A stretch of DNA of 64,000 nt from Gemmiger formicilis (GCA_963612735.1 CAVDWX010000010.1:10387-74386); one strand, 5' to 3'. Shown: positions 18,319 through 58,762, counted from the first letter of the stretch. Notes: generated by a model not told the origin, from the sequence alone. Translations and numbers: made by a program.

Positions 18319-18322
18319 AAAA

Positions 18323-41948: not shown

Positions 41949-42029
41949 GTAATCCTCTTTTTAGTGTATATACACATTTTTTCCTAATATATTTTAGGAA
42001 TAGAATTTGAATCAATAGTGGTAAAAATA

Positions 42030-42065: not shown

Positions 42066-42087
42066 ATTAATTTAATAGGTCTAATAC

Positions 42088-42855
42088 CTATTTATTTTCT
42101 ATCTGTTTTGGACTATCTTCACTATTAGTGACATCAATAACATCTGGATTGCTATCGCTATTAGTTGAGGCGTTCTTTTTCTTTTTCTTCTTCTTTTCTT
42201 TGCCTTTTTTAACATTATTACTAATAGAGGTGGAGTTATTATGTCCACTATTAGGTTTTAAGTTTCCGTATATACCATAGCCAAGATTTAATAAACCAAA
42301 GATACAGATGGCTAAACCCACTATCATGTAGATGGCTTCTTTTGCTTTTTCTTGGTATATAAAAATTAAAATTCCGCCAACGACACAAATGACGCCTAAG
42401 ACAAAATTCCAAATCATGATCCCAACATTTAATGGTTTAGTTGTACAGGCGACAATTATACCTTTAAGAATACATATGCCTCCATAGGAGAGGAATAAGA
42501 TAGCAAAGGTATTGATCAAAAATGTCGATAAACTGCCTGAGTTTCCTTTACTTGTTGAGATGCATAATGTCACGCCTAGTGCAATGCAAATTGAAGCATA
42601 CACTAAGGAAGAGGAGAATAACTCATTTGGATGAAGTAACAAGCTTATGCAAATGTAAAGACCACCGATAATGAATAAGCATATGGCAACAAGAATGCTG
42701 AGATAAGTATCTAATTTATCATGATTATTAGCCGCTAAAACAACAACAATAATGCCAACGATAATCATTAATGTTCCGACTACTATTTGCATCCATTTAT
42801 TATTACTAAAGAATTTTTTCATAACTTTATTTTTCCTTTCTTTATTAATATACAT
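42088..42855 (-). CDS. DUF308/HdeD-like membrane protein with a C-terminal poly-lysine tail.
   Basis: Six predicted TM helices with GxxxG-rich repeats; C-terminus KKGKEKKKKKKKNAS encoded by an AAG/AAA tract; paralog of 51159..51746. Confidence 0.72.
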   Translation of the reverse strand: MYINKERKNKVMKKFFSNNKWMQIVVGTLMIIVGIIVVVLAANNHDKLDTYLSILVAICLFIIGGLYICISLLLHPNELFSSSLVYASICIALGVTLCISTSKGNSGSLSTFLINTFAILFLSYGGICILKGIIVACTTKPLNVGIMIWNFVLGVICVVGGILIFIYQEKAKEAIYMIVGLAICIFGLLNLGYGIYGNLKPNSGHNNSTSISNNVKKGKEKKKKKKKNASTNSDSNPDVIDVTNSEDSPKQIENK

Positions 42856-43332
42856 TCTTTTAATTCATTCGTTAATGTCATTTTCTTACTTTTTTGTAGT
42901 TCTTAGAACTTACAAAGTAGATTAGTTTGGATTTCACACACCTCTTTATTAAAACCAAATAATAAATAGCGTATTTTCAAATACAGTTTTCTTTTTAAAT
43001 TGTTGCATTGTTTATAGACTCTTTCATTGGATTATATTGATTACATCAGCTTATTTTATAAATTGTGTACTTAATCCACTTTTAGATGCAGAATTCTTGT
43101 TAAGAACTCAATAAGCTAAAAACGCTCCTAATCAAATTTATTATTCTAACAAGGACAAGATAAAAAATGTCTAGTACTCTTCTTAACTCAATAAAATTTT
43201 ATAAATTGAATTCATCAGTTTTTCTTTCTTTAATAAGCTTTTAAGAAAGCAATATTTTTTAACTTTTCTGCTATCTTTTCATATCTAGAGGACTATAATA
43301 ATTGCCGTTTGTGAAAGAAGGCCTATGAAATT

Positions 43333-44727
43333 ATGAATACTAAAGATATGACAAAAGGCAATTCGTTTATTATCATCTTGTTATTCGCAATACCAATGGT
43401 ATTATCGGTTACCTTACAACAATTATATAACCTTGCTGATAATTTTATTGCTGGACATTTTATCAGCTCAGTAGATAGCTTTAATGCAGTTGGAATTGTT
43501 TATCCTATCACTGTTGTCTTTTTAGATATAGCTGTTGGATTTGGAGTTGGATGTGGAGTTATAAGCGCTAGATATTTTGGTGGGAAAGACTTCATTTCTG
43601 TTAAAAAGTGCGCAAAAGTTGGCTTAATTGGAACGATTTGCTTAGGACTTATCGTTACTGCGATTGGTTTTGGAATCATTTATCCTCTATTAAAAGGAAT
43701 GATTGATAGCAAGAATGGGCAAGGATGTTTTAATGAAGCTTTGTATTATATGCTCATCTATATTGGCGGCGTTATATTTCTTTTTATCTATAATTACGCG
43801 ATGTATATGTTTCAATCGTTTGGCAATTCTAAAACGCCCTTATATTTTTTAATCTTTTCAACCTTGCTTAATGTGGGATTAGATTTATTATTTGTGGTCC
43901 CTATTAAATTCAATAGTGCTGGTTTAGCCCTTGGCACCGTCATTTCGGAAGCTATCGCTGCGATATTATCAGTTATGGTTTTATTTAAAAACATTAATAA
44001 GATGCATGAGGTCAAAATTAAAGGTTTTGATAAACCTATTTTTAAAGAGATTGTTTCTGTTGCAATTCCTAGCATTTTACAAGGCTTATTTATCTCCATT
44101 GGCGGTGTATTAATTACAACAATTCTTACTAATGTTGGTGGAAATGATGTGGCAGGTGGATATTCTGCAGCCTATAAAATTTGTTATATTGCTATCAATA
44201 TTTTTACTGTCCTATGCAATGCTTTATGCAATTTCGTTTCGCAAAACGTTGGAGCGCAAAAATATGAAAGAATTATGCATGGATATTTTTCAACATTGAT
44301 AATTTGCTTTGTTTTCTGCGCTATTTCTATGGCGGTTATTCTTCCTTTAAAAGAATTCTGGGTGAAGTTATTTTTATCAGAAGGCGATAACGCTGATGTT
44401 AAAACCATTATACATTCTGGATCATTATTTATTACGTGTGTTGTTCCCTTTTTCTTCTTAATGGTTATTAAGATTCCACTTGATGGTGTCTTAAAAGGGT
44501 CAATGGATATGTTCGGTTTTACTCTTGGCACATCAGTTGACTTAGCAGTTCGTGTCTTAGCTGCTTTGATACTTGGTAATCTTTATGGCTATGAAGGCGT
44601 TTTCTTTGCGTGGCCGTTAGGATGGGCTGTTGGAGCAGTAATTTCAATTGTTATGTTCTTTGTTGGAAGATGGAAAAAGAAATGTCACTATCCAGTGGGA
44701 ATGAAACTTATTGTGAAAAATAGTTAA
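43333..44727 (+). CDS. MATE-family multidrug/oligosaccharide efflux transporter.
   Basis: 12-TM protein with N-terminus FAIPMVLSVTLQQLYNLADNFIAGHF, typical of MATE (NorM/DinF) proteins; 464 aa. Confidence 0.88.
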   Translation: MNTKDMTKGNSFIIILLFAIPMVLSVTLQQLYNLADNFIAGHFISSVDSFNAVGIVYPITVVFLDIAVGFGVGCGVISARYFGGKDFISVKKCAKVGLIGTICLGLIVTAIGFGIIYPLLKGMIDSKNGQGCFNEALYYMLIYIGGVIFLFIYNYAMYMFQSFGNSKTPLYFLIFSTLLNVGLDLLFVVPIKFNSAGLALGTVISEAIAAILSVMVLFKNINKMHEVKIKGFDKPIFKEIVSVAIPSILQGLFISIGGVLITTILTNVGGNDVAGGYSAAYKICYIAINIFTVLCNALCNFVSQNVGAQKYERIMHGYFSTLIICFVFCAISMAVILPLKEFWVKLFLSEGDNADVKTIIHSGSLFITCVVPFFFLMVIKIPLDGVLKGSMDMFGFTLGTSVDLAVRVLAALILGNLYGYEGVFFAWPLGWAVGAVISIVMFFVGRWKKKCHYPVGMKLIVKNS

Positions 44728-44773
44728 AACTAAATCGACCGACTTTTTTAGTGCCTATATTTTACTTTTTTCC

Positions 44774-44810
44774 TTGGTGCATCTTTGGTGCATTTTTTGG
44801 TGCAAATTAT
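44774..44810 (+). repeat. 37-bp element holding three copies of TTGGTGCA (copy A), 42 nt upstream of the Schlafen-like gene.
   Basis: TTGGTGCAtctTTGGTGCAtttttTGGTGCAaattat; matches 46278..46314 at 36 of 37 positions. Confidence 0.85.
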
Positions 44811-44851
44811 CAAAAATATGATACAATTGTATATAGAAATAGGAGTTAAAA

Positions 44852-46276
44852 ATGTCATTGCCCACAAATATTAATAAGATTTTAAACCCTGACATTGTTG
44901 AAAGTGTTCGTGTTGAATTAAAAGAAGGTTGGAACCCTCAATCTATTCTTCATACAATATGTGCTTTCGCTAATGATATCGATAATTTTTATGGTGGATA
45001 TATTATTCTAGGTATTAAAGATAATAAAGAAGTTATTGGTTTTGATAGATCCAAATTTGACGAACTTCAAAAAGATGTTATTAGATACTGTAAAAAATGT
45101 CTTGAGCCATCATATGAACCTGTCATTGATATCGTTAAATATGTTGATAAAGATGTCGTTGTTTTGTGGTGTCCATCTGGTGAACAAAAACCTTATAAAT
45201 GTTATGAAGATGTCTATACAAGTAAGAGTGAAACGCGCTTTCAAACATATATTAGAAAAGGTTCATTAACTATTATTACTTCTCATGCAGAAGAAAAAGA
45301 ACTTTATAATATTGGCAACTTCATCCCTTTTGATGATCGCGTTAATTATAAATACGATCTAAGTGTGATTGATAAGGATATTGTAAGAGAGTATTTAAGA
45401 AAAGTTGATTCCAATCTATTACTTAATTTTAATAGCCACAGTTTAGAACAAATTTTGTTTGATTTAAGAGTTTTATCTGGACCAATCGAACATTTATGTC
45501 CTAAAAATATAGCTCTATTGATGTTTACAGATAACCCATCTTTATATATCCCGTATTCTTATATTGAAGTTACGATTCTAAAAGATTTATCAGGAGAAGA
45601 ATTAATTGAAAAAACTTTCGATTCTGCCTTATTCAAACAATATGAAAACTGTATGCAATATTTAAAGGATAATGTCATTGAAAAGAAAATCGTTAAAGTT
45701 GAAGGAGACTATAAAGCAGCTACAATTTATAATTATTCATACGAAGTTCTTGAAGAAGTAGTTGCTAACGCTATTCTACATAAGTCTTATCAAATTGCTG
45801 AACCGGTTTCAATTAGAGTTGAACCAGATAAAATTGAAGTGACTAGTGTACCAGGATTTGATCGAACAATTAGCAATACAGCAATTAAAGAATTAAAACC
45901 TAAATCAAAAAGGTATCAATCTCGGCGCATTGCAGAGTTTTTAAAAGAATTAGGAATTGTTGAGGCTAAAAACACGGGCTATCCTCGCATTGTTAAAAAG
46001 AGTTTAGAAAATCATTCTCCTCTTCCAATTATTGAAATGAATGAACAACGTGATTACGTTACTGTAATTATTCCGATTAACAAAAATTTTGTGAATAATA
46101 ACCTTTCGTTAGAAGATAAAATCATTGATTTGCTACAAGAAAAACCTCTTACCAAAACTGAACTTGCTTTAGCGTTAGGATATCCACGAGTCGTTAATTC
46201 TATTAGTTATAGGCTTAATAAGTTAATTAAAGAAAACAAAGTCTCTATCAAGAGTAAAAAATATTATTTGATTTGA
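44852..46276 (+). CDS. Schlafen-like ATP-binding protein / putative transcriptional regulator (AlbA_2 + HATPase_c_4 + C-terminal winged HTH; COG2865 family).
   Basis: N-terminal AlbA_2 signature (VELKEGWNPQSILHTICAFANDIDNFYGGYIILGIKDN), HATPase_c_4-like (NAILHKSY..NTGYPRIVK), C-terminal wHTH (LTKTELALALGYPRVVNSISYRLNKL). Confidence 0.85.
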   Translation: MSLPTNINKILNPDIVESVRVELKEGWNPQSILHTICAFANDIDNFYGGYIILGIKDNKEVIGFDRSKFDELQKDVIRYCKKCLEPSYEPVIDIVKYVDKDVVVLWCPSGEQKPYKCYEDVYTSKSETRFQTYIRKGSLTIITSHAEEKELYNIGNFIPFDDRVNYKYDLSVIDKDIVREYLRKVDSNLLLNFNSHSLEQILFDLRVLSGPIEHLCPKNIALLMFTDNPSLYIPYSYIEVTILKDLSGEELIEKTFDSALFKQYENCMQYLKDNVIEKKIVKVEGDYKAATIYNYSYEVLEEVVANAILHKSYQIAEPVSIRVEPDKIEVTSVPGFDRTISNTAIKELKPKSKRYQSRRIAEFLKELGIVEAKNTGYPRIVKKSLENHSPLPIIEMNEQRDYVTVIIPINKNFVNNNLSLEDKIIDLLQEKPLTKTELALALGYPRVVNSISYRLNKLIKENKVSIKSKKYYLI

Positions 46277-46277
46277 T

Positions 46278-46314
46278 TGGTGCAACTTTGGTGCATTTTT
46301 TGGTGCAAATTACG
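46278..46314 (+). repeat. Second copy (copy B) of the 37-bp triple TTGGTGCA element, starting 2 nt after the Schlafen-like gene stop.
   Basis: TTGGTGCAactTTGGTGCAtttttTGGTGCAaattac. Confidence 0.85.
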
Positions 46315-46372
46315 GCGTAATACATAATATCGACATCAAGTATTTCATGTTATTATCTATATTTTATTATTG

Positions 46373-46408
46373 TGCACCAAAGCATAGATTATTGGTGCAT
46401 TTTTATTT
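46373..46408 (+). terminator. Inverted TGCACCAA-N11-TTGGTGCA repeat followed by a T-run: either a terminator-like hairpin or a palindromic operator built from the same 8-mer.
   Basis: 8-bp perfect arms, 11-nt spacer, then TTTTTATTT; the motif is identical to the direct-repeat arrays. Confidence 0.55.
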
Positions 46409-46469
46409 CCTATGAGGTTAAATAAATGTATAGATATTTTCTTCCTTTTAGTGGAAAATTATATTAGTC

Positions 46470-49400
46470 ATGAAATTAAGCATTAAAAATACGCTTTATC
46501 TTTCCATCATACAAAATAAATGGATAGATATTTCTTATCTTAATAAAAATAATGAATCCACCTCTTATTTCATTGGGATAAAAGATATCAATATTAAAAA
46601 GGAAATCATTTATTGCGATATTTTCAATCCATTTAAACAATTATTAAAAGATAATAAAGAAACATTCATTTATATCAATTCCATTCAAAGCGCTGAAATT
46701 ATTGAAGAAAGCTATTATGAAGTTCCTTCCTCTATCCTTAGGAAAATAAAAAAAGATGATGAATTGAAAGAATATTTACAAGTCATCAATTTTGATAATA
46801 ATATTTTGAAATATTTATCCGATTGTTATCGTTATGATAATGATCCGTTTTTAAAAGATATCGTCATGATTGACGGGATTGATTTGCATGTTCTTTCTTC
46901 CACTAATAAATACAAATTAAATGATAAACAATTTGAAACTATTTTAGATAAAGTTTTCAAAAAGAAAAAGAAAGATGCGGAAGCTATTGTTCGTTTCCAA
47001 ACCTTGGCTATAAATGTCTTTTCTATCGACATCAATGATAAGCAATATGTTGTCGCCTATAAAATGCTTAATCTCAATTTTAAGAACAAAACTCTAAAAA
47101 TGAGCAATAATTCTATAATTAATAAATCCTTTCTTATCAGTGAAGAAAAGAAAGTCACATTAGGAATGTATTTAGATATTAATCCTGAAACATTTATCTC
47201 TACTTTTGACGCTCATAAGGATGAATACATTGAAGGAATTAAAGCTAATTTCCATAATCATGAATTAGTCAATACTCGACCGACTATCTTTTTGTTGGCG
47301 AGAACTTTTTATAAAGATGTCGATATCACTTTTGAATCGATCCATCAAATGGACAAAGATAATAAATTAACTTTCCCTATAAAAGCCTTTTTTGGAAGGA
47401 CAAAACCCACTAAAGAGAGAACTAAAGAAGTTAATGTTGTCATCTTTAATCAAAAGAAAATAAACATTGATCAGATGAGAGTTATTTATAATTCTATGAT
47501 TAATCATGTCACCTATGTTAAAGGTCCACCTGGTACAGGTAAAACCGAGACCATATTTAATGTTTTATTATCAGCATACGCAAATGATATGAAAGTTTTA
47601 GTTTGTTCTAATAATAATCATCCCGTTAGCGATATTTATTTAAAGATGCAAAATTCGTTAACGGTGCAATTTGATAATCAAGATAAGCCGACACCAATTC
47701 TTTTTCCTCTTATTAGATTAGGCAATAACACTGAAATGGTAGAGACAATCGCAAAACTCAAATCTATTGTTATCTATATTCAAGAACATGCTAAGGTCAA
47801 TATTTCAGAAAACGCCACTGCTGGAAGTAAAAAGCGCTTTATGGAAACGTTTAATAAATTAAAGGAAACACTTAAAGAATATGAAGATAGCATTGATCTA
47901 TCAGAACGACTCAATATTTTAGAAAAGATAAAAAGCATGAGCGAGATTTCCGCTATCAATAACAAATTAGATGAACAAATTGCGACATATCGTAGTTTAC
48001 TAGAACGTTCTAAAATTGTCTCAGATGATGAAGTGATGTCTCTTGCTATATCAGCCTCAAATGATCGCAACTTCCAATATTATTTATATTATTCATCGTT
48101 AGCTAAATATAAAAAATTGTTAACTGAACCTTATAAAGACTTAATTAATATTCTTAACCTATCCGATGTCGATGATGCTGTTATGGAATTCAATCGATAT
48201 TTACGAAATGACGACAATTTAAAAAAGTTTTTACATGTTTTCCCGCTTGTTTTATGCACAAATTTGTCTTGTGGTAAATTAGGTGGAGCTAAACCACAAT
48301 TTGATTTAGTAATCATGGATGAAGCGGGACAATGCAATATTGCTACTTCTTTAATTCCTATTATAAGAGGCAATAATTTATTACTTGTTGGTGATACTAA
48401 TCAACTTCAACCTGTCACTGTCTTAGAAGATAACGTTAATGAATCTTTAAAAAAAAGATATGAGATAGGTGATGAATATGATTACATTCATAATTCCATT
48501 CTTTCGACAATGATGAGAAAGGATAATAATTCAAAATGTATCTTGCTTAGATATCATTATCGATGTGGTAAAAAGATTGCTAATTTTGTCAATAAACGCT
48601 TTTATAATGATCAGCTTAAATTATTAAATCAAAATGTTGGCGAATTGATTTACTATAATGTGAAAAATACTACTACTAAAAATAATCGAAACGCCTATAA
48701 AGAAGAAGCTATTCAAATTGCTCGATTAATAAAAAATAAAAAATATAAAGAAGTTGGAATTATCACTCCATTTGTTAATCAGGCCGCTCTTATCAATCAA
48801 TATTTATCAGAATTGGATATCAATGATGTTAAAGCCGGAACTATTCATACGCTTCAAGGTTCTGAAAAACAGATCATTATTATGTCCAGTGCCATATCAC
48901 TTAAGACTGGTTTTAAAACGATGGATTGGATCAAAAATAACCATGAATTAATTAATGTTGCTGTCACTAGAGCTAAAAGTAAATTTATCTTTGTGGGTGA
49001 TAAACAAGCTATTGATTTATTGAGCAAAGACGAAGATAACGATATCAAAATTTTATCTGACTACATCTATAGTAATGGAACGGTGATTGTTCCGCCTAGC
49101 GACGCTATTATTTCATACGATTTTTCAAATGATTCGAAAAATGAAAAAGATTTTTTTGAAACAGTTAGACCATACTTTAATCGAAGAGGCTCTAAATTTA
49201 AGATTGAAAGAAATGTTCCAATCATGAATGCGATTAAAAATATTAATCCCGAAGATTATCATCTAATTGGTAAGAAGGAATTTGATTTGATTGTTCAAGT
49301 AAGCAGCGGCTTATTTAATAAACATTTTCACACTATTGTGGTTTTTGAAATTGATGGTGGAGAGCATATTGGTAGCAATAAACAAGCTAAATTAGATCGA

Positions 49401-49571
49401 CAAAAAGAAAAAGTTTGTAAAAAATATGGGATTAAATTAATCCGTATTCCTAACAGTGCAGTCAAAGATTATGAAACCATTATTTCTTTATTTGAAATGG
49501 TGGTCAAAGGTTTAAAAGATATGAAAGAAGCGTTTTCTCAACTTTCTTTATTTGATAACGAAACTGTTTAA
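46470..49571 (+). CDS. Upf1-like SF1B helicase (AAA_11/AAA_12) fused to a C-terminal Vsr/DUF559-like PD-(D/E)xK nuclease domain, with an uncharacterised ~340-aa N-terminal domain; architecture is Hhe-like.
   Basis: Motif I VKGPPGTGKTETI, Ia VLVCSNNNHPVSD, II LVIMDEAGQ, III LLVGDTNQLQPV, V GTIHTLQGSEKQIIIMSS, VI NVAVTRAK; C-terminus FDLIVQ...VVFEIDGGEH...LIRIP. Confidence 0.88.
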   Translation: MKLSIKNTLYLSIIQNKWIDISYLNKNNESTSYFIGIKDINIKKEIIYCDIFNPFKQLLKDNKETFIYINSIQSAEIIEESYYEVPSSILRKIKKDDELKEYLQVINFDNNILKYLSDCYRYDNDPFLKDIVMIDGIDLHVLSSTNKYKLNDKQFETILDKVFKKKKKDAEAIVRFQTLAINVFSIDINDKQYVVAYKMLNLNFKNKTLKMSNNSIINKSFLISEEKKVTLGMYLDINPETFISTFDAHKDEYIEGIKANFHNHELVNTRPTIFLLARTFYKDVDITFESIHQMDKDNKLTFPIKAFFGRTKPTKERTKEVNVVIFNQKKINIDQMRVIYNSMINHVTYVKGPPGTGKTETIFNVLLSAYANDMKVLVCSNNNHPVSDIYLKMQNSLTVQFDNQDKPTPILFPLIRLGNNTEMVETIAKLKSIVIYIQEHAKVNISENATAGSKKRFMETFNKLKETLKEYEDSIDLSERLNILEKIKSMSEISAINNKLDEQIATYRSLLERSKIVSDDEVMSLAISASNDRNFQYYLYYSSLAKYKKLLTEPYKDLINILNLSDVDDAVMEFNRYLRNDDNLKKFLHVFPLVLCTNLSCGKLGGAKPQFDLVIMDEAGQCNIATSLIPIIRGNNLLLVGDTNQLQPVTVLEDNVNESLKKRYEIGDEYDYIHNSILSTMMRKDNNSKCILLRYHYRCGKKIANFVNKRFYNDQLKLLNQNVGELIYYNVKNTTTKNNRNAYKEEAIQIARLIKNKKYKEVGIITPFVNQAALINQYLSELDINDVKAGTIHTLQGSEKQIIIMSSAISLKTGFKTMDWIKNNHELINVAVTRAKSKFIFVGDKQAIDLLSKDEDNDIKILSDYIYSNGTVIVPPSDAIISYDFSNDSKNEKDFFETVRPYFNRRGSKFKIERNVPIMNAIKNINPEDYHLIGKKEFDLIVQVSSGLFNKHFHTIVVFEIDGGEHIGSNKQAKLDRQKEKVCKKYGIKLIRIPNSAVKDYETIISLFEMVVKGLKDMKEAFSQLSLFDNETV

Positions 49572-49607
49572 ATTAAAATTTATATAAAGTTTTAGGAGGA
49601 CAAAATC

Positions 49608-51080
49608 ATGATGACAATATATAAGGTAGCTGAATTAATAACTAAAAATCCGAATGATATAATTTTTTATATTATCGATAAGGAAGAAGTTATTACTTTT
49701 CCACACAAAGATTATAAAAAGTTATTGAAAAATTATCATGACGAATCTATTTCGCAAACTACTTTTGAAACGCTAGCTCGATTAAAGCTTGAAAACGACA
49801 ATAATTTTTATATATTGCCTTACTTTACTAAGAAAGATTTAACTAAAATTGTTAATGAATTTGTTTCTCTACACCAAAACGACTACTTCCAAAATTTCAA
49901 GTCTATAACAATCACCCAAATTAAAAAGAACATGTTGAATGATTCTTCTTTTAAAGATTGCTGGATTAATTTCTTTTGCGATTTAATTGGTATTCATTTT
50001 TTGAAATTTGCTGAAGCTTTTAAAATTAAAGAAGATGAGGCAAGCCCAGAACTTTATAAAAAAGTTGTTGATTTGCTAAAGGAATATGAAGAAGGCCATT
50101 ATGAAAAGATTTTCGCTGATAATCATCGCTTTAATTTATTTTTTGATAAGACCTTTGGCGCAGATGCTTTATGTACTATTATGGGACATGGAGGAATCAC
50201 TAATGGCATCAGTTTTTACATTCACGAAAAAGCTGAAGCTATGCATATTTTGCTTACTAATGACAACAACGACTTAGATGATTATTATGTTCCGACTTTA
50301 ACTTTTTTAGGAAAACAAATTACTTTTTATTTTAATGATGAAAGTTGTGCAACAAATAATGACAAATTTGGAAGTCTAAATCCATTTGGCGATGATGATT
50401 CAATTACATCGTTTGTTACTTATGTAGGTACTTCTTACCATTGCTATTTAACTGCCTCTATGGCACATGGTGTGATTAGATATTTAACTAAGCTTCTTCT
50501 TGCAATGAAAGATTTTGTTAAAGAAGCTAAAAAATTAGATTTAGAAGATACTACTTATGATTTTATTATGGTGGATGAACAAACTCATGTTACACCAATC
50601 GATACAAATTCTGATGATTTTGTAGATGATATTACTATTGACCTACCCACTGCTAAAATTTTTGATAAGAAAAAGAAAATTAAATTAAAGACTAATAAAA
50701 AATGGGACTTTGCTGTTCGATTTGTTCCTGGCGCTAATGTGGCTGAAGAGACAGGACGAATTTGTGATTGGGTTTTTTATTATTGTTTCTTTGATCATGA
50801 TAGTGGCGATATCGTTCGTTTTGAAATGGTACCACCTGAATTTATGGATACAATAAGCACTTTAATTGACAATTTGACTGAGACATTACACTTAATTGGT
50901 TTAGCGGATACTGTTTATTGCTCAAGCTTTTTCGACGCCGCTATTTTATCTCTTGCATTAGGAAAAGATAATGATATCTGTAAAAAATTTAATTTTGTTT
51001 TTACTCGAAAGTTAAAAGACCAAATCAACACATTATCGGAATCGCTAATGGAAGAATTTGATAAAGAAGCTGATGCTTAA
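49608..51080 (+). CDS. Uncharacterised acidic 490-aa protein, co-transcribed partner of the helicase-nuclease.
   Basis: Strong RBS AGGAGGA 7 nt upstream; 37-nt gap after the helicase gene; no recognisable domain; rich in D/E/F/Y. Confidence 0.78.
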   Translation: MMTIYKVAELITKNPNDIIFYIIDKEEVITFPHKDYKKLLKNYHDESISQTTFETLARLKLENDNNFYILPYFTKKDLTKIVNEFVSLHQNDYFQNFKSITITQIKKNMLNDSSFKDCWINFFCDLIGIHFLKFAEAFKIKEDEASPELYKKVVDLLKEYEEGHYEKIFADNHRFNLFFDKTFGADALCTIMGHGGITNGISFYIHEKAEAMHILLTNDNNDLDDYYVPTLTFLGKQITFYFNDESCATNNDKFGSLNPFGDDDSITSFVTYVGTSYHCYLTASMAHGVIRYLTKLLLAMKDFVKEAKKLDLEDTTYDFIMVDEQTHVTPIDTNSDDFVDDITIDLPTAKIFDKKKKIKLKTNKKWDFAVRFVPGANVAEETGRICDWVFYYCFFDHDSGDIVRFEMVPPEFMDTISTLIDNLTETLHLIGLADTVYCSSFFDAAILSLALGKDNDICKKFNFVFTRKLKDQINTLSESLMEEFDKEADA

Positions 51081-51158
51081 TTTCATACTTTTTTAATTCG
51101 ATAGTACTTAATCTTACCATTTATAGTTTCTATAATTATAAATAGGAGGAAGAATTTT

Positions 51159-51746
51159 ATGTCTTATTTTAAAGATAAACTCAAACAGTGCAAATGGGAC
51201 AATATTGTTATTGCTCTTCTTACTTTAGCACTTGGTATTTTATGTCTAATTTTCCCGCATGAAACAGGCGATACACTAGTTTATGTATTTGGTGTTTTAG
51301 CTATGGTAATCGCCATCTTGTTATTTGTTAGATCATTTTATATGGTCTCATTTCTAAGCGTTTATTCTCTTGCTTTAGGGATAGTTTTACTTTCGGTTGG
51401 CATTTTTACAATCTGTTTTCCAGAATTTATCAAAGCCTTGCTACCATTTTTCTTTGGTTTGTATATCGTTGTCGATAGCGCATCATCTCTTGCGGAATCA
51501 GTCCAATACGGTTATATGAAAGTCCGCGGATGGTGGTTATTAATGGTCTCATCTATTCTCACTATCATTTTTGGTGTGATTGTCATGATGTTTGCTAAAT
51601 TTAACGATGTTATGATTCTTGCTGGTATTGCCCTTATTGTTGAAAGCGTGAGAAGATTCATCTTTACATTTACTGTCGAATATAAAATTAAAAGACTTAA
51701 AAAAGATGTTAAAGATGTAATTGATGCTGAAATAATTGATAAATAA
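51159..51746 (+). CDS. DUF308/HdeD-like membrane protein (paralog of 42088..42855).
   Basis: RBS AGGAGGAAG; six TM helices; NIVIALLTLALGILCLIFP...GVLAMVIAILLF typical of DUF308. Confidence 0.75.
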   Translation: MSYFKDKLKQCKWDNIVIALLTLALGILCLIFPHETGDTLVYVFGVLAMVIAILLFVRSFYMVSFLSVYSLALGIVLLSVGIFTICFPEFIKALLPFFFGLYIVVDSASSLAESVQYGYMKVRGWWLLMVSSILTIIFGVIVMMFAKFNDVMILAGIALIVESVRRFIFTFTVEYKIKRLKKDVKDVIDAEIIDK

Positions 51747-51763
51747 TAATAATTTTAAGCGAT

Positions 51764-51793
51764 AAAACCACTTGGGAAACTGAGTGGTTTTTA
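51764..51793 (+). terminator. Rho-independent terminator after the DUF308 gene.
   Basis: AACCACTtgggaaactgAGTGGTT followed by TTTTAT. Confidence 0.7.
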
Positions 51794-51810
51794 TCTTATT
51801 GATTATTATA

Positions 51811-51862
51811 ATTTACTCATTTACCTATTTGATTTACTCATTTACTCATTTAATTTACTCAT
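51811..51862 (+). repeat. Tandem array of the octamer ATTTACTC (about 5 copies, some degenerate) just upstream of the second Schlafen-like gene.
   Basis: atttactc-atttacct-atttg-atttactc-atttactc-attta-atttactc-atttg. Confidence 0.8.
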
Positions 51863-51893
51863 TTGATATATTTTTAGTATAGCAATCGAAGAA

Positions 51894-53312
51894 ATGGATA
51901 TTCTTAATTTAAAAGATGAACATTATGTAGAATTGAAAAGCACTGATGGTGGATTGCCGTTAAGCTTATATTAAACAATTTCTTCTTTTGCTAATTCGGA
52001 TGGTGGCACCATCTATTTAGGTGTTGTCGAAGGAAACCCTAATCAATTGCGAGGTTTGAACAAAAATACTTGTGATAAATATAAGTCTGATTTGCTTAAC
52101 TCCATTCATAACAAAAACAAGATTTCATTTCCGGCTATTTCTGATGACAACTTTATGCTCATTTCACTAGCTAATGAGAAATATGTTTTGGCTATTGAAG
52201 TTAAAGAAGCTCATTATTTGCAAAAACCTGTCTATATAAATGGAAATGTGCTTTTAGCCTATGGTAGAGATAATGAAGGTGATTATTTGCTTAGAGAAGA
52301 TCAAATTAAATCTTTATTTGAAGATAGTGGTCATGGACTTTTTGATTCTCTTCCAAATAATATGCATTACGGTTTTGAAGAAGTCGATTTAGACACTCTG
52401 CACATTTATCGAAGCATGCTGAATGAAAATGATCCGACAAATTTATATAAAAAATATAATGATGTAGATTTTTTAAAAAAGACTGCTTTTTTACTTCCAA
52501 ATAGTAATGGCAATTACGTTCTTTCGAATGCTGCAGTACTTCTTTTTACCTCATCTTCATTAATTAAAACTATTTGTCCTTACTATTATCTAGATTATCA
52601 ACAAAAAGAAAATATTAGTGAAAAGTGGAATAATAGAATATCTAGTGATGACACAAATTTGTCAGGAAATCTCTTTGATTTTTATTTAAAAACATTTAAT
52701 GAAATATGCAAACAACTCCCATCTAGTTATGTTAGTGATGGAAGCAAAAACATTGGTCCTCGTTTAATGCAAGACGCCATTAAAGAAACTTTGGCTAATG
52801 CTTTAATCAATCACGCTTTTATGTTGAATGGGTCGTTAACTGTATTCTGGTATTTAAACGGAATAGAAATACAAAATAATGGTAAGATGCTTGTGCCTTT
52901 AGATGTTGCCTTTCGAGGTGGAACATCTCTCCCACGGAATTCTATGATTTTAACTGCGTTTAGAAGACTTGGCATTGCTGATCGAGCTGGCACTGGTATT
53001 CCAAAAATCATTGAAGCTTTAAAAGATAATCATTTTCCTGATTTAGTTATTAAAGAATTTTCTTATCCAATTGATAAAACTACTTTAGTAATATCTTTTA
53101 TTTCACTTAATAAGACCAAAGGAAATGGTAATAAAGATATAGTGCTTTCATTACTAGCTAAAAATAATGATGGGCTCAGCATATTAGACTTTATGAATTT
53201 AACTAATTGGTCTAGATCAACTGTTTCTAAACTCCTCAATAATTTATTACAAAAAGGGCAAATTACCACAAACGGAAAAGAAAAGAAGGCACGTCGCTTC
53301 CTTTTAAAATAA
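51894..53312 (+). pseudogene. Second Schlafen-like (AlbA_2 + HATPase_c_4 + wHTH) gene, interrupted by an in-frame TAA at 51972..51974 (codon 27).
   Basis: ATG 51894 encodes MDILNLKDEHYVELKSTDGGLPLSLY, then TAA, then the same frame continues TISSFANSDGGTIYLGVVEG... (AlbA_2 core). The stop sits where the family usually has Lys, so AAA to TAA is a likely cause. Confidence 0.7.
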
Positions 53313-53362: not shown

Positions 53363-54031
53363 ATGGGAAAAAAATACCTTATGGATGAAAAAGAAAGCCA
53401 AAAATATATTTCTAATAACTTTTTAAATAGACTTCCATATTATTTAAAGCACCTTACCACATTAAAAGAAAAAGGTGTTCAATTTGTAAATGCTCGCGAA
53501 TTAGCGCTTGACCTTGGTTATAATGCTGAACAAGTTAAAAAAGATCTTCAAATAGTCTGTAAAGGAAAAGGGAAACCTAAAATTGGAAGAAGCGTTTTAG
53601 AACTAATTTCAGACATCAATGACTTTCTTGGCTACAATAATACGACTGACGCTATTATAGTTGGTATTGGCCATTTAGGGACTGCTTTTTTAAATTATCC
53701 AGGCTTTGCAGACCTCGGTTTAAACATTGTTGCTGGTTTTGATATCGACCCCACTCTTTTTGGTAGACTTATCAATAATAAGATGATTTATAGTATGTCT
53801 CGTCTTAGCACAGTTGTGCCTCGATTAAACGTTCATATCGCTATATTGACGACGCCAAGCTCAGCTTCTAATGTAGTTGCTCAAAAATTAGTAAAATGTG
53901 GAATTAAAGCCATTTGGAATTTTTCACCAATGGTTTTAGATGTTCCTGAAGATATTATTGTGGAGAATGTTAATCTTGCTTCTTCACTTGCGGTTTTATC
54001 TCATAAATTAAATAAAAAAATGAAAGAATAA
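53363..54031 (+). CDS. rex: Redox-sensing transcriptional repressor Rex
   Basis: Aligns with B. subtilis Rex: RLPYYLKHL wHTH, Rossmann GIGHLGTAFLNY, and C-terminal swap domain. Confidence 0.88.
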   Translation: MGKKYLMDEKESQKYISNNFLNRLPYYLKHLTTLKEKGVQFVNARELALDLGYNAEQVKKDLQIVCKGKGKPKIGRSVLELISDINDFLGYNNTTDAIIVGIGHLGTAFLNYPGFADLGLNIVAGFDIDPTLFGRLINNKMIYSMSRLSTVVPRLNVHIAILTTPSSASNVVAQKLVKCGIKAIWNFSPMVLDVPEDIIVENVNLASSLAVLSHKLNKKMKE

Positions 54032-54056
54032 ATCATAAATAAAAGGAGAATTAATC

Positions 54057-54308
54057 ATGATTGTTTCTGTCTGTGTTGGTTCAGCTTGCCATTTAAAAAA
54101 TAGCTACGATATCATCAATCTATTTAAGGAAAATATCGCTAACCATAATTTAGAAGATAAAGTTGAATTAAAAGCGACATTTTGTTTAGGGAAATGTGGT
54201 ATTGCTGGAGTTTCAATTAAAGTTGATGATCAAATTATTACCGGTGTGACTGTCGATAATTTTAACGACATCTTTAAGAATTATATTCTCGATAAATTAA
54301 GCGCCTAA
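54057..54308 (+). CDS. Thioredoxin-like [2Fe-2S] ferredoxin (NuoE/HndA-like small subunit).
   Basis: 83 aa with VCVGSACHLK ... CLGKCGIAG cysteine motifs; RBS AAAAGGAGA. Confidence 0.72.
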   Translation: MIVSVCVGSACHLKNSYDIINLFKENIANHNLEDKVELKATFCLGKCGIAGVSIKVDDQIITGVTVDNFNDIFKNYILDKLSA

Positions 54309-54309
54309 T

Positions 54310-55986
54310 ATGGAATTCCCATTATTATCAAAGACGACTAATTGTCGCAATTGTTATAAATGTATTCGAAATTGTCCAGTTAAAGCTATTTCGTTTTTTG
54401 AAAATAAGGCAAATATTATCGCTGATGAATGCATTCTTTGTGGACATTGTTATTTATATTGTCCGCAAGGAGTTAAAGTGATACGCGATGATTTAGTGAA
54501 AGTTAATTCATTTTTATTTCTAAAAGAGAAAGTGGTTATTTCACTAGCTCCATCTTTTTTAGCTAATTATCCTGGTGTTTCTATTAAGAGCTTTAAAAAA
54601 GCTGTGAAAAAGGTTGGCTTTTTTGATGTTGAAGAAACAGCAGTTGGCGCGACAATTGTTAAAAATAAATATGATGAAATGCTAAACGATAATAGTAGAG
54701 ATGTCATCATTTCTTCTTGCTGTCATTCCATCAATCTATTAATTGAAAAATATTATCCAGAAGCACTCCCCTTTTTAGCGGATATTCTTTCTCCAATGTG
54801 CGCACATGGTAAAGATATTAAAGAAAGACTAGGAAAAGATACAAAAGTTGTCTTTGTAGGACCTTGTATTGCGAAAAAAGATGAAGCTGATCATAGCCCT
54901 TATATCGACGCTGCTTTATCTTATGCTGAGTTTGATAAATTATTAGAAAATAATGATGTTGAATTAGAAGTTGATAATGATGTTTTAATTGAAAAATCAA
55001 AGGCTAGATTATTTCCAACTTGTGGTGGAGTTTTAAAAACCATGGCAAAAGCCAATCCAAATTATCAATATTTGGCTATTGATGGGGTAAGAAACGCTAA
55101 ACAAGCTTTGCAAGATATCATTGATGGAAAGATTCATCACTGCTTTGTTGAAATGTCAACATGCGCTGGAAGTTGTATTAATGGACCTCTAGTTAATCCC
55201 ATTCATCGCGCGGTTTTAGAAGGTTCATTAAATGTCAATAAAAATGCTGGGCAGTTAGATTTTGACGCTAATAATGATTGCGATATTTCTACGACTTATC
55301 ATTCCTATAATACGGTTGCCTCGATTCCTAGTGAAAACGAAATAAATGCGATGCTTATCAAAATGGGTAAGATTAAAGAATCAGATCAATTAAATTGTGG
55401 TTCCTGCGGATATCCATCTTGTAGGGAAAAGGCTATTGCCATTATTCAAGGCAAAGCCGTTATTGAAATGTGCTTACCATATTTAATGAATAAAGCTAAT
55501 TCATTATCTGATAAATTAGTCAATGCTTCCATTGAAGGTTTGATGGTAATCGATGACGAACTTAATATTAAATTAATCAACTCTTCGATGTGTCATATGG
55601 TGAGGATTCCTCGTCCAGAAGATGTTTTAAATAAAAAGATTTATTTACTATTTGATGGAAGTGATTTTGTTTCATGCTTACAAGAAAAAAAGAGCATTAA
55701 ATCTAAAATCTCCTTCTTAGCGGAATACAATAAATACCTTGAAATGTCCATTTTATATGATGATGAATACCGTCTTTTAATCTGTGCTTGTCGAGATATT
55801 ACTGATGAAGTTGTGGCACGTAGTGAAAAAGAAGAGAGAATTAATAAAACCATTTCTCTTACCGAAGAAATACTTAACCGCAATTTAGCAGCGGTTCAAG
55901 AAATTGCTTCTTTATTAGGTGAAAATGCCGCTTCCACCAAAGTAGCCTTAAATCGTATTAAGGAAACGATAAAAGATGATAAGTAA
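54310..55986 (+). CDS. hydS: Sensory [FeFe]-hydrogenase (HydS-like, group C) with N-terminal 4Fe-4S ferredoxin motifs and a C-terminal PAS domain.
   Basis: CRNCYKCIRNCP and CILCGHCYLYCP clusters; H-cluster motifs SSCCHS (L1), VGPCIAKKDEA (L2), EMSTCAGSCINGP (L3); C-terminal PAS-like region (ASIEGLMVIDDELNIKLIN...). Confidence 0.82.
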   Translation: MEFPLLSKTTNCRNCYKCIRNCPVKAISFFENKANIIADECILCGHCYLYCPQGVKVIRDDLVKVNSFLFLKEKVVISLAPSFLANYPGVSIKSFKKAVKKVGFFDVEETAVGATIVKNKYDEMLNDNSRDVIISSCCHSINLLIEKYYPEALPFLADILSPMCAHGKDIKERLGKDTKVVFVGPCIAKKDEADHSPYIDAALSYAEFDKLLENNDVELEVDNDVLIEKSKARLFPTCGGVLKTMAKANPNYQYLAIDGVRNAKQALQDIIDGKIHHCFVEMSTCAGSCINGPLVNPIHRAVLEGSLNVNKNAGQLDFDANNDCDISTTYHSYNTVASIPSENEINAMLIKMGKIKESDQLNCGSCGYPSCREKAIAIIQGKAVIEMCLPYLMNKANSLSDKLVNASIEGLMVIDDELNIKLINSSMCHMVRIPRPEDVLNKKIYLLFDGSDFVSCLQEKKSIKSKISFLAEYNKYLEMSILYDDEYRLLICACRDITDEVVARSEKEERINKTISLTEEILNRNLAAVQEIASLLGENAASTKVALNRIKETIKDDK

Positions 55987-57154
55987 ATACGCTACTGATA
56001 TTGCATATCTTTCTTATAATCACTATGGCGAAGAGTTGTGTGGTGACCATGTCGAATTAGTTAGACCGAATGAAAATGAAGAAATATTCGTTTTAGCGGA
56101 CGGTCTTGGTAGTGGTGTGCAAGCTTCTATTCTTTCGATTTTGACAAGCAAAATGCTTTCTACCATGGTTGCGTATAATATCTCTTTACAAGAATGTGTC
56201 AATACGATTGTTGAAACGCTTCCTGTCATTAAAGAAAAAGGTGTTGCCTATTCCACATTTACTATTATCAAGGTTAAAGATTCTTCTTTTGTTGAAATAT
56301 ATAATTATGATAATCCTTTGCCGTTTTTAGTAAGAGATAATCAATCGATTAACATTAACTATACGGAGAGCGTCATCGCTAATAAAAAAATTAGTTATGC
56401 GGCTTTTCATGTTCGTTTACATGATGCCATTATCGCTATGAGTGATGGCAATGTCTATGCCGGAATGGGAAATCAATATAATTTTGGTTGGGATATGCCT
56501 AATATCATGGATTTTTCTTCTAAAATGTGTTCCCCGACTTGTTCAGCGATGAATTTTGCGACCTTTTTTATCGATTATGTAAGAGGCTTATATGATTATA
56601 AATTAGGCGATGATTGTACGATTGGAGTAATCAAAATAAGAGAAAGAAAAACTGTCAATTTTATGATTGGCCCGCCTTCTAATAAAGATGATGATGAAAG
56701 AATGGCGTCTTTATTTATGGGGAAAGACGGGATTCATATTGTTTCTGGAGGAACAACTAGTCAAGTTGTCGCTAATTATTTGCATGAAAAAGTGGAGCAA
56801 AGTATGGACTATATTAAAAAAGATGTCCCACCAATTGCGTACATAAAAGGTGTGGATTTAGTGACAGAAGGTGTGATAACTGTTAATAAAGTTCTTGAAT
56901 ATGCAAATTCTTATTTAAAAGATAATAATAAAGAATATTATGAATGGTATGGCAAAAAAGATGGTGCTTCTTTAATTAGCCAATATTTATTTGAAGAAGC
57001 AACTGAAGTGAATTTCTTTGTCGGATGTGCTATAAATGAAGCTCATCAAAAAGGAGATGGCAGTATTAATCACTCCATTAAAATGCACCTCATTGATGAA
57101 CTTGCTAATGCATTGAAACAAATGAGAAAAAATGTTAAGGTTAATTATTTTTAA
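55976..57154 (+). CDS. PP2C/SpoIIE-type serine phosphatase (HydS-associated regulator).
   Basis: ELCGDHVEL...VLADGLGSGVQASI..MSDG typical PPM metal-binding motifs; overlaps the hydS 3' end. Confidence 0.8.
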   Translation: MISKYATDIAYLSYNHYGEELCGDHVELVRPNENEEIFVLADGLGSGVQASILSILTSKMLSTMVAYNISLQECVNTIVETLPVIKEKGVAYSTFTIIKVKDSSFVEIYNYDNPLPFLVRDNQSININYTESVIANKKISYAAFHVRLHDAIIAMSDGNVYAGMGNQYNFGWDMPNIMDFSSKMCSPTCSAMNFATFFIDYVRGLYDYKLGDDCTIGVIKIRERKTVNFMIGPPSNKDDDERMASLFMGKDGIHIVSGGTTSQVVANYLHEKVEQSMDYIKKDVPPIAYIKGVDLVTEGVITVNKVLEYANSYLKDNNKEYYEWYGKKDGASLISQYLFEEATEVNFFVGCAINEAHQKGDGSINHSIKMHLIDELANALKQMRKNVKVNYF

Positions 57155-57173
57155 GGAATTGAGGTAGACCAAA

Positions 57174-58625
57174 ATGAATGAAAGATTTGATACGGATGTA
57201 CAGGAACTGAAATATAAAGTTCTCAAAGAAATAGCGAGATCCGCTTTTAGCGATACATTATTAGAAGATTATAATGATATTCCAAAACGCGTTATACCAG
57301 GACCAAAACCTACTTATAGATGTTGTATTTTTAAAGAAAGAGCCATTGTTTTAGAAAGAATTAAGTTAGCCTTAGGTGGAAATAAAGATATTCATAACAT
57401 TGTTGAAGTTATCGATATCGCTTGTGATGAATGTCCATTAGGTGGATATGAAGTGACGAACAGATGCAGAGGATGTATTGCTCATCGCTGTCAAAAAGCA
57501 TGTCATAGAAACGCTATTAGTTTCGATCCAGTGACTAGACGCGCTCATATCGATAAGAGTAAATGTGTTAATTGTGGATTATGCGCAAAAGCATGTAATT
57601 ATTACGCTATCACTAATTATCAAAGACCTTGTGAACAAGCATGTAAAGTTAAAGCTATTTCTCGAGGAGAGAATGATCAAGCCGTAATCAATGATGAAAA
57701 GTGTGTTCAATGTGGGGCATGCGTCTATCAATGTCCTTTTGGCGCGATTGTTGATAAATCAAGCATTGTCGATGTCATTAATGAACTCAAAAATAGTGAT
57801 TATTCTAAAAAATATAAGGTGTATGCCATTGTCGCTCCTTCTATTTCAAGTCAATTTAAAACCGCTAAATTGGGCCAAATTGTGACTGCTATTCAAAACT
57901 TAGGATTCCATCATGTCATTGAAGCTGCTTTAGGAGCGGACATGGTTGCTTATAATGAAGCAAAAGAATTAGAAGAAAAAGGTCTATTAACTTCTTCTTG
58001 CTGTCCTACTTTTGTAACATTTATTGAAAAATATTTTCCTGAATTAATCGATAAGATTTCGACAAATCTATCTCCAATGGCGACCATCGGTAAATGGATT
58101 AAGAAAAATGATCCCACTTCAAAAATTGTCTTTATTGGACCATGTATTTCCAAAAAAGCTGAGATTCAAAAAAGTAAAGTTCGCGATATTATCGATTATG
58201 TTCTAACTTTTGAAGAATTAAACGCTCTAATTGACGCTAAAGAGATTGATGCTTCTACGTTAGAAGAATCTCCACTTGATAATGCTTCTTATTTTGGACG
58301 TATCTTTGCTCGAAGTGGCGGTCTTAAAGATGCCGTTGTTCAAGCTTTAAAAGAACAAAATTCCACTTTTGAATTAAATGCCTTATCAGTGGATGGATTA
58401 GAAAATTGCCGTTTAGCCTTAAACAAGTTAAAGAGTGGTACACAAGATTTTAACTTTTTAGAAGGTATGGGCTGTGTTGGCGGTTGCATAGGTGGACCTT
58501 GTTGTTTGACACATGAAATTCGCGATAAAGCTGATGTCGATCGATACGGAAGAGAATCTAAAGAAGCTAATATTACCGGTGCAATTGAAAATTATCTCGA
58601 TATTGATACAGGTGAAATAAAATAA
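57174..58625 (+). CDS. [FeFe]-hydrogenase family protein (catalytic HydA-like, possibly group B) with N-terminal Fe-S cluster domains.
   Basis: CVNCGLCAKAC and CVQCGACVYQCP ferredoxin motifs; H-cluster motifs TSSCCPTF (L1), IGPCISKKAE (L2), EGMGCVGGCIGGP (L3). Confidence 0.78.
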   Translation: MNERFDTDVQELKYKVLKEIARSAFSDTLLEDYNDIPKRVIPGPKPTYRCCIFKERAIVLERIKLALGGNKDIHNIVEVIDIACDECPLGGYEVTNRCRGCIAHRCQKACHRNAISFDPVTRRAHIDKSKCVNCGLCAKACNYYAITNYQRPCEQACKVKAISRGENDQAVINDEKCVQCGACVYQCPFGAIVDKSSIVDVINELKNSDYSKKYKVYAIVAPSISSQFKTAKLGQIVTAIQNLGFHHVIEAALGADMVAYNEAKELEEKGLLTSSCCPTFVTFIEKYFPELIDKISTNLSPMATIGKWIKKNDPTSKIVFIGPCISKKAEIQKSKVRDIIDYVLTFEELNALIDAKEIDASTLEESPLDNASYFGRIFARSGGLKDAVVQALKEQNSTFELNALSVDGLENCRLALNKLKSGTQDFNFLEGMGCVGGCIGGPCCLTHEIRDKADVDRYGRESKEANITGAIENYLDIDTGEIK

Positions 58626-58640: not shown

Positions 58641-58658
58641 TGTAAAGAAAACTTTACA
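58641..58658 (+). promoter_or_regulatory. 18-bp perfect palindrome TGTAAAG-N4-CTTTACA upstream of glnA; resembles GlnR/TnrA-type operators (TGTNA-N7-TNACA) with one extra spacer nucleotide.
   Basis: tgtaaagaaaactttaca; the 7-bp arms are exact reverse complements. Confidence 0.4.
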
Positions 58659-58667
58659 ACAAAATTT

Positions 58668-58686
58668 GTCCATATTGGACTTTTTT
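58668..58686 (+). terminator. Weak rho-independent terminator after the hydrogenase cluster; a possible -35 TTGACC for the glnA promoter starts just downstream at 58688.
   Basis: GTCCAtatTGGAC followed by TTTTTT. Confidence 0.45.
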
Positions 58687-58762
58687 GTTGACCAAAAACT
58701 ACTTTTGAGTGCATTATTTTGATATTGCAATTGTAAGTTGCTGTAATAGGAGATGATTTGTA

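Follow-up and report, generated by a model that had tools for sequence, protein, structure and literature searches.

A rex–hfsABCD gene cluster without adhE, probably orthologous to a fermentative hydrogen-metabolism operon, in an uncultured Bacilli lineage

Positions 53363 to 58625 of a 64-kb stretch of DNA (contig CAVDWX010000010.1 of assembly GCA_963612735.1; this whole stretch is the window, from whose start cluster coordinates are counted) hold a compact five-gene cluster that we regard, with good confidence, as an ortholog of the rex–(adhE)–hfsABCD operon of fermentative hydrogen metabolism, from which adhE has been lost. The cluster encodes the repressor Rex, a small ferredoxin (HfsA), a putative sensory [FeFe]-hydrogenase (HfsB, or HydS), a PP2C phosphatase (HfsC), and a second [FeFe]-hydrogenase (HfsD). 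The system has already been described and is common in the lineage, and the case is hence an ordinary one that leaves the picture drawn from Thermoanaerobacterium and Ruminococcus unchanged; it supplies one more example of a regulatory operon that is believed to link the choice of fermentation products to H2 partial pressure and NADH/NAD+. Its value is comparative, in that the sensor–phosphatase–hydrogenase core persists under selection past the loss of adhE.

RESULTS

Gene content and organization of the cluster

A six-frame listing of open reading frames (ORFs) places five of them, all on the + strand, between 53363 and 58625, and their Pfam and NCBIfam matches bear out the Rex plus Hfs/HydS-type gene set that a first-pass annotation, made from the sequence alone, had proposed for this region:

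53363–54031, + strand: rex, NADH/NAD+-sensing repressor, 222 amino acids (aa) (NF003994, 238.4 bits versus a cutoff of 130)
54057–54308, + strand: hfsA, minimal thioredoxin-like [2Fe-2S] ferredoxin, 83 aa (PF01257, 36 bits versus 24.8)
54310–55986, + strand: hfsB/hydS, M2f-type (group C) putative H2-sensing [FeFe]-hydrogenase, 558 aa
55976–57154, + strand: hfsC, SpoIIE/RsbU-type PP2C phosphatase, 392 aa (PF07228, 38.7 bits versus 25)
57174–58625, + strand: hfsD, group B [FeFe]-hydrogenase, presumed to be ferredoxin dependent and H2 evolving, 483 aa (TIGR04105)
58657–58690, + strand: intrinsic-terminator-like hairpin with a U-run (terminator scan, 58668–58680; RNA fold, −14.1 kcal/mol, z = −2.74)
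58688–58717, + strand: promoter-like site for glnA, after the hfsD terminator hairpin

Spacing within the cluster is tight: rex and hfsA are separated by 25 bp (a gap that contains the ribosome-binding site AAAGGAGA), hfsA and hfsB by 1 bp, and hfsC and hfsD by 19 bp, while hfsB and hfsC overlap by 11 bp. Because this spacing is combined with the absence of any terminator inside the cluster and with the hairpin and U-run directly 3′ of hfsD, the organization supports a single transcript, and the five genes are very probably cotranscribed. Scanning the window for Rfam families and tRNAs gave no matches.

The window encodes both release factor 1 (prfA, 28799–29908) and release factor 2 (prfB, 36192–37265, whose ORF as listed starts at GTG), so that UGA is a stop codon, the genetic code is code 11, and the organism is not a code-4 Mollicute; the first-pass annotation had suggested a possible affinity to the Mollicutes lineage. 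The nearest named relatives of UvrB, at 81% identity, are from “Bacilli bacterium” genomes, and the host is an uncultured, low-GC, gut-type lineage of Bacilli, mesophilic in type.

HydS has the architecture and ligands of a group C hydrogenase

HydS was aligned to solved hydrogenases (HydA1 of an electron-bifurcating hydrogenase, 8a6t, and Thermotoga maritima HydA, 7p5h), and the residue numbering of CpI used below, for both hydrogenases of the cluster, derives from the printed alignment. Its parts are arranged as follows:

54334–54474, + strand: N-terminal region for two [4Fe-4S] clusters, residues 9 to 55 (Pfam Fer4_10, Fer4_7, Fer4_9)
54529–55188, + strand: H-cluster domain, residues 74 to 293 (PF02906, Fe_hyd_lg_C, 152 bits)
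55396–55473, + strand: accessory C-terminal [4Fe-4S] motif Cx2Cx4Cx16C, formed by C363, C366, C371, and C388 (PF04060, 45 bits, residues 360 to 390)
55513–55806, + strand: PAS domain, approximately residues 402 to 499 (PF00989, 22.9 bits versus 22.6; weaker matches to PAS_8 and PAS_9)

After the PAS domain, a conserved helical tail extends up to the stop codon, and the PAS region is collinear with that of HfsB from Thermoanaerobacterium saccharolyticum, to which HydS as a whole is 36% identical over 560 aa (E = 2e-115).

The four cysteines that hold the H-cluster (C138, C186, C285, and C289, equivalent to C300, C355, C499, and C503 of CpI) lie in the P1, P2, and P3 motifs, and the equivalents of K358 and E361 are kept and strictly conserved. 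The first-pass annotation had allowed for a loss of H-cluster cysteines, which is not seen: the four ligands align in both hydrogenases. It had also quoted the motifs SSCCHS and GPCIAKK as degenerate; both are present, and the alignment confirms that the active site is altered, since small residues occupy the positions of M353 (G184) and M497 (S283), and most residues of the proton pathway differ (E279N, S319A, and R286M, with E282D as a conservative change), although Cys is kept at the C299 position (C137). Small residues at the M353 and M497 positions, together with the loss of most of the fast proton pathway, would suit the enzyme to H2 equilibration rather than to rapid turnover.

The Cx2Cx4Cx16C motif defines subclasses M2e and M2f (PMC8163306), and its combination with a PAS domain assigns HydS to M2f (group C) and not to group D. 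Placement in group D, with the Thermoanaerobacter mathranii TamHydS type, was considered and rejected: HydS has a PAS domain and carries G and S at the M353 and M497 positions, where group D enzymes have S and L. That HydS is an H-cluster-binding M2f/group C hydrogenase is, at the level of sequence, well supported.

HfsA and HfsD

HfsA covers only positions 67 to 144 of the PF01257 profile, equivalent to the C-terminal half of NuoE/HoxE. Its cysteines (Cys6, Cys11, Cys43, and Cys47) are spaced C-x4-C-x31-C-x3-C, and all four also occur in the T. saccharolyticum protein encoded directly 5′ of hfsB, with which HfsA is 48% identical by BLASTP (E = 3e-28). Two tandem hfsA paralogs precede hfsB in many loci of the Oscillospiraceae/Ruminococcus type (L002, L006 to L014, L017 to L019, L021, L022, and L066 in the numbering of the genome scan described below, at approximately 7480–7970 in locus coordinates), and the window has one.

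HfsD matches TIGR04105 (FeFe_hydrog_B1) over residues 5 to 447 with 573.8 bits, against a cutoff of 450. The first-pass annotation had listed it as a second HydA-like protein; a second [FeFe]-hydrogenase with H-cluster ligands is indeed present, but the TIGR04105 match refines it to group B rather than to a generic HydA. Its motifs are SSCCP for P1 (C276, C277), GPCISKKAE for P2 (C324), and EGMGCVGGC for P3 (M432, C434, C438). The proton-pathway residues E262, E265, and S296 (equivalent to E279, E282, and S319) and the equivalent of M497 are retained, and the M353 position holds Gly, as in CpIII (PMC10055695). HfsD is approximately 49% identical to the HfsD region of T. saccharolyticum, and an exact-sequence lookup of HfsD matched no record. 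An intact, catalytically competent group B site is well supported by these residues, and HfsD is probably a working, ferredoxin-linked, H2-evolving enzyme, as its active site and the genetics of T. saccharolyticum suggest (PMC11837493).

HfsC couples a PP2C phosphatase domain to a conserved C-terminal domain

HfsC, the partner phosphatase recognized in the first-pass annotation, has the expected PF07228 match, a PP2C fold, and intact catalytic Asp residues, and divides into two domains:

55976–56650, + strand: N-terminal PP2C (SpoIIE/RsbU/RsbX-type) Ser/Thr phosphatase domain, residues 1 to 225 (PF07228)
56651–57154, + strand: C-terminal conserved alpha/beta domain, residues 226 to 392 plus the stop codon (AlphaFold2, pLDDT [predicted local distance difference test] score of 86.4)

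The AlphaFold2 model of the whole protein is confident (pLDDT, 85.5). In Foldseek searches, residues 1 to 225 best match SpoIIE (5mqh, E = 6.6e-14), with further matches to RsbX and to the RsbU-type protein Rv1364c, and the metal-binding residues D24, D42, D157, D212, and D213 are invariant across 36 homologs. The C-terminal domain, for its part, has no significant fold match in the PDB (best E = 0.02), no Pfam match, and no sequence match in the PDB. A profile search of 1.84 billion representatives recovered it in 1,130 clusters, and among the matches listed, each full-length member (approximately 380 to 405 aa) carries it at the C-terminal end (approximately residues 225 to 392), with the invariant motifs GGTTS, VDLVTEG, DGAS, and AxNxAHQ. 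HfsC is 40% identical to its T. saccharolyticum counterpart (E = 3e-98), the unannotated C-terminal half included. A partner-switching context, in the form of STAS or anti-sigma kinase genes, was found neither among the scanned ORFs of the window nor among the neighboring genes in relatives.

The module is widespread, and adhE has been lost from the cluster in this lineage

The first-pass annotation held that a module of this kind would be unusual for such an organism, a view that does not survive the searches: HydS and HfsC each have at least 8,000 significant matches, including hundreds of full-length homologs at 50 to 58% identity; the nearest named matches are from “Bacilli bacterium” metagenome-assembled genomes (MAGs) and Solobacterium, and the module also occurs in Erysipelotrichaceae and Breznakia. 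With HydS as the query, a genome scan yielded 80 loci in 80 species (T. saccharolyticum is L072), and each count given here is based on the loci with enough flanking sequence. HfsC comes directly after HfsB in 68 of 73 loci, and HfsB is preceded by HfsA in 57 of 78, frequently by two copies in tandem; in 32 of 62, HfsC is followed by HfsD. A rex gene is found no more than 6 kb upstream in 17 of 62 loci, often with adhE between rex and hfsA, and AdhE is encoded just upstream in 9 of 62. The position directly behind Rex, as first described for the window, is confirmed, yet adjacency to Rex is recurrent.

Comparison at the rex–hfsA junction (window, 54031–54057; L085, 5076–7688; L090, 6115–8730; L089, 1–306) shows what distinguishes the window. 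In relatives, a bifunctional adhE of 870 aa lies between rex and hfsA: the order rex–adhE–hfsABCD is found in “Bacilli bacterium” MAGs and in a relative whose HydS is 57% identical, adhE adjoins hfsA in a relative whose HydS is 71% identical, and in three loci rex is divergent from adhE–hfsABCD. The window junction lacks adhE, as does that of the closest relative (L087, HydS 93% identical), which shares the window order rex–hfsABCD–glnA–glmS. In L085, glnA and glmS lie somewhat further downstream, past two extra genes that are not in the window. Judged from gene order, rex adjoins hfsA in the window and in L087 because adhE was recently lost, and we take the direct junction to be a recent, lineage-specific loss from a conserved ancestral cluster.

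The ratios of nonsynonymous to synonymous substitution rates (dN/dS) against L087 are 0.033 for hfsA, 0.043 for hfsB, 0.036 for hfsC, and 0.016 for hfsD, in comparison with 0.060 for glnA. By this measure, purifying selection on the genes that remain is strong, and they are not decaying.

Rex and candidate regulatory DNA

Rex has the expected winged-helix domain (Pfam Put_DNA-bind_N, PF06971) and Rossmann NADH site (CoA_binding, PF02629), with the GxGxxG motif in the form GIGHLG. Its start codon is the ATG at 53363; a second in-frame ATG occurs at 53381, and 53363 is also the start chosen by the gene caller for an identical Logan contig. There is no clear Shine-Dalgarno sequence for rex.

Rex operators were searched for with two consensus forms, including TTGTKAA-N4-TTMACAA, allowing up to three mismatches, and window-wide counts are at chance level. 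In other lineages, Rex boxes with zero to one mismatch to TTGTKAA-N4-TTMACAA lie 40 to 100 bp 5′ of hfsA, at the following positions in locus coordinates:

L027: 7683 (0 mismatches)
L033: 7676
L077 (Thermoanaerobacterium): 5388
L080: 1167

These boxes place hfs within the Rex regulon in those lineages, unlike in the window. Weaker sites with two mismatches (2852/2873) lie 5′ of adhE in L055, and the box of L036 is also 5′ of adhE.

Close relatives of the window share a different element, an oriented stem-loop of the form (Y)RGTAAAAAAATACY(R), which occurs once per locus, with approximately 15 to 30 bp between it and the gene that opens the cluster (be it rex or adhE), and presents an A-run on the coding strand. 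Exact copies are found in L004, in L082 to L086, and in L090 (29 bp 5′ of rex). The copies compared are as follows, in locus coordinates except for the last:

L004: 30–43
L082: 5103–5116
L085: 4402–4415
L090: 5444–5457
Window, 53365–53378, + strand: degenerate copy GGGAAAAAAATACC, with one mismatch to GGTAAAAAAATACC

In relatives, the element folds as a 5′ stem-loop (z = −4.06 in L085), and a compensatory change from G-C to A-U separates L090 from L085; the window copy does not fold (z = +0.52). Among 120 matches to the exact 16-mer CGGTAAAAAAATACCG in a metagenome scan, none is next to rex, adhE, or hfs genes. This element is no Rex box; it may serve as an operator peculiar to the lineage or as a 5′ untranslated region (5′-UTR) hairpin or control site.

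DISCUSSION

How the operon might work

If the cluster functions as its homologs are described to, HfsD would make H2 from reduced ferredoxin, and the electron partner of HydS would probably be HfsA, the cotranslated [2Fe-2S] protein. The state of HydS (redox or occupancy) would then pass through the accessory [4Fe-4S] cluster to the PAS domain, from there to the C-terminal helices, and on to the translationally coupled HfsC. HfsC, in turn, might dephosphorylate some phosphoprotein and so tune how strongly HfsD and fermentation enzymes are expressed, or how active they are, to H2 partial pressure, with Rex contributing the sensing of NADH/NAD+.

Several observations weigh against this account. 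The PAS match to PF00989 is borderline (22.9 versus 22.6 bits). HydS retains Cys at the position of CpI C299 (C137) and might therefore be more active than its T. maritima counterpart, TmHydS; Cys at this position is the minority state, found in 17% of sensory hydrogenases (PMC10055695). In the related group D enzyme TamHydS, the redox state of the accessory cluster is unresponsive to H2 (PMC13104023). No Rex box with three or fewer mismatches occurs over 51.7 to 54.1 kb, the region upstream of rex and hfsA. Neither hydE, hydF, nor hydG, nor any kinase (anti-sigma or Ser/Thr) or STAS gene, was found in family scans of nearly all window ORFs of at least 110 aa, as the first-pass annotation had reported for these maturases and for kinase/anti-sigma components. 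Moreover, we know of no group C enzyme for which H2 sensing is more than putative.

Alternative explanations

Three other explanations of the cluster are less well supported than the adhE-less hydrogen-metabolism operon proposed here. The first is that HfsA, HfsB, and HfsC together sense the redox state of the cell (that of the ferredoxin pool, through the Fe-S clusters or the PAS domain) instead of H2, with the H-cluster vestigial or serving as a redox buffer. The three accessory clusters of HydS, its dedicated [2Fe-2S] partner, and the linkage of the cluster to the redox-related proteins Rex and AdhE all fit such a role; the PAS domain of HfsB may respond to redox potential (PMC11837493), and the behavior of the TamHydS accessory cluster mentioned above points the same way. 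Nevertheless, all H-cluster ligands and the equivalents of K358 and E361 are strictly conserved under strong purifying selection, which is hard to explain if H2 binding is irrelevant, and fermentation stoichiometries in Ruminococcus albus match high versus low H2, from which the authors of that study infer that regulation of the cluster follows H2 (PMC6776011). We consider a pure redox sensor unlikely.

The original “hfs” proposal, by which HfsABCD is a multisubunit catalytic hydrogenase with HfsB as a second catalytic subunit, HfsA as an electron-transfer subunit, and no sensing of H2, draws on a partly different set of observations. HydS has all H-cluster ligands and, in contrast to TmHydS, the C299-equivalent Cys, which is kept as part of a CC pair in 120 of the 120 closest HydS homologs; HfsA is similar to NuoE/HydC-type subunits, which belong to multimeric hydrogenases, translational coupling links the genes, and deletion of the whole operon lowers hydrogenase activity (PMC5707799). 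However, E279, S319, and R286 are replaced in HydS, which, like the slow TmHydS, has G and S at the M353 and M497 positions (PMC10055695), and catalysis offers no role for a PAS domain or a PP2C phosphatase. Deletion of hfsB raises hydrogenase activity, and hfsD alone suffices for the phenotype (PMC5707799, PMC11837493). A catalytic complex of this composition thus appears very unlikely.

That the cluster is a decaying remnant, with a regulatory module deprived of its target and drifting toward pseudogenes, is suggested by the missing adhE, the degenerate upstream stem-loop, the lack of a clear Shine-Dalgarno sequence for rex, and the lack of a Rex box, but it is hardly credible given five intact ORFs, intact catalytic and ligand residues throughout, and dN/dS values of 0.016 to 0.043 against the likewise adhE-less L087, which are tighter than the 0.060 of glnA.

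A tentative extension of the adhE-less operon model concerns where its signal might go. The 167-residue C-terminal domain of HfsC may supply what is missing from H2 signaling by [FeFe]-hydrogenases, an output module or one for partner binding, with HfsD or a global regulator, and not adhE, as the primary target, and with the stem-loop as a lineage-specific operator or 5′-UTR control site; we put this forward as a conjecture that has, in our estimation, a modest chance of being correct. Were the output-module reading true, the strong selection on the sensor–phosphatase pair despite the loss of adhE would imply that adhE is not the primary target. For TamHydS, the interaction partners are stated to be still to be found (PMC13104023). 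Given this open question of the interaction partners of sensory hydrogenases, the uncharacterized C-terminal domain of HfsC deserves attention.

Other features of the window

Immediately upstream of rex, the block at 40638–53312 has the appearance of a variable region or defense island. It contains an AAA_14/DUF4143 ATPase (PADLOC PDC-S01, 316 bits), an AlbA_2/HATPase_c_4 protein, an HdeD-like membrane protein, a 1,033-aa Mokosh-like (MkoA/MkoC) helicase, next to it a 490-aa protein without a family, and a second HATPase_c_4 protein, with a winged helix. Between genes, 5′ of the HATPase_c_4/winged-helix gene, three full and one partial direct copies of ATTTACTCATTT occupy approximately 51811–51865, and a strong terminator hairpin lies just before these repeats, at 51764–51791.

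At the other end of the window, 341–19345 is dense in genes for glycan degradation (glycoside hydrolases GH123, GH20, and GH106-like, fucosidase-like, rhamnosidase-like, and GH130 mannobiose-phosphorylase-like proteins, and L-fucose isomerase), a content consistent with a gut organism that forages on host glycans. The ORF at 6867–8501 encodes a MalK/UgpC-type ATP-binding cassette ATPase of 544 aa whose profile is matched in two pieces (approximately residues 1 to 144 and 281 to 543), which indicates an insertion of approximately 140 aa within its nucleotide-binding domain; a separate 249-aa ORF at 4152–4901 matches the N-terminal ATPase part only.

Comparison with known systems

The hfsABCD operons of T. 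saccharolyticum and T. thermosaccharolyticum match the window in gene order (2Fe-2S protein, PAS-containing hydrogenase, PP2C phosphatase, and group B hydrogenase; PMC5707799, PMC11837493), and HfsA, HfsB, and HfsC of T. saccharolyticum are collinear with those of the window over their full lengths, the unannotated C-terminal domain of HfsC being common to both. They differ in that rex is joined to the 5′ end of the operon in the window, in that T. saccharolyticum HfsB has Ser at the C299 position (TTSCP) where HydS has Cys (SSCCH), and in that a Rex box, absent from the window, lies 78 bp 5′ of hfsA in L077, a Thermoanaerobacterium locus. Across five thermophiles, deletion of hfsA or hfsB raises adhE expression and ethanol yield, whereas deletion of hfsC or hfsD does not (PMC5707799), and hfsD alone restores the phenotype (PMC11837493).

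The HydS/HydA2/AdhE cluster of R. albus 7 has eight genes, which may include those for Rex and a kinase. Like the cluster of the window, it combines a PAS-containing group C hydrogenase, a Ser/Thr phosphatase, and a ferredoxin-only hydrogenase (PMC6776011). It includes AdhE, as do the clusters of the close relatives of the window but not that of the window, and at low H2 this cluster (AdhE, ferredoxin-only hydrogenase, HydS, and phosphatase) is down-regulated 111-fold (PMC6776011).

Among sensory hydrogenases, TmHydS (M2f, group C), which we compared through its published residues, has the same architecture of two [4Fe-4S] clusters, H-domain, Cx2Cx4Cx16C motif, and PAS domain, and its G177 and S267 correspond to G184 and S283 of HydS (M353G, M497S); at the C299 position, it has Ala where HydS has Cys (PMC10055695). 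TamHydS (M2e, group D) is also a putative sensor and shares with HydS the N-terminal clusters and the Cx2Cx4Cx16C motif, and its canonical proton pathway is disrupted (PMC8163306, PMC13104023), but it lacks a PAS domain and carries M353S and M497L where HydS has G and S.

SpoIIE, RsbU, and RsbX are the best structural matches to residues 1 to 225 of HfsC, with the metal-binding Asp residues conserved; in HfsC, however, a family-specific C-terminal domain replaces the regulatory domains of SpoIIE or RsbU, and no STAS or anti-sigma kinase gene is nearby. Finally, the [NiFe] HoxBC–HoxJ–HoxA system of Cupriavidus necator follows an analogous logic, in which a slow hydrogenase acts as a sensor and signals to phosphorylation-based control through a PAS-like module (PMC5707799, PMC6776011). 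There, neither the metal center nor the proteins are related to those of the cluster, and a histidine kinase with a response regulator, instead of a PP2C phosphatase, forms the output, such that the likeness between the two systems is purely functional.

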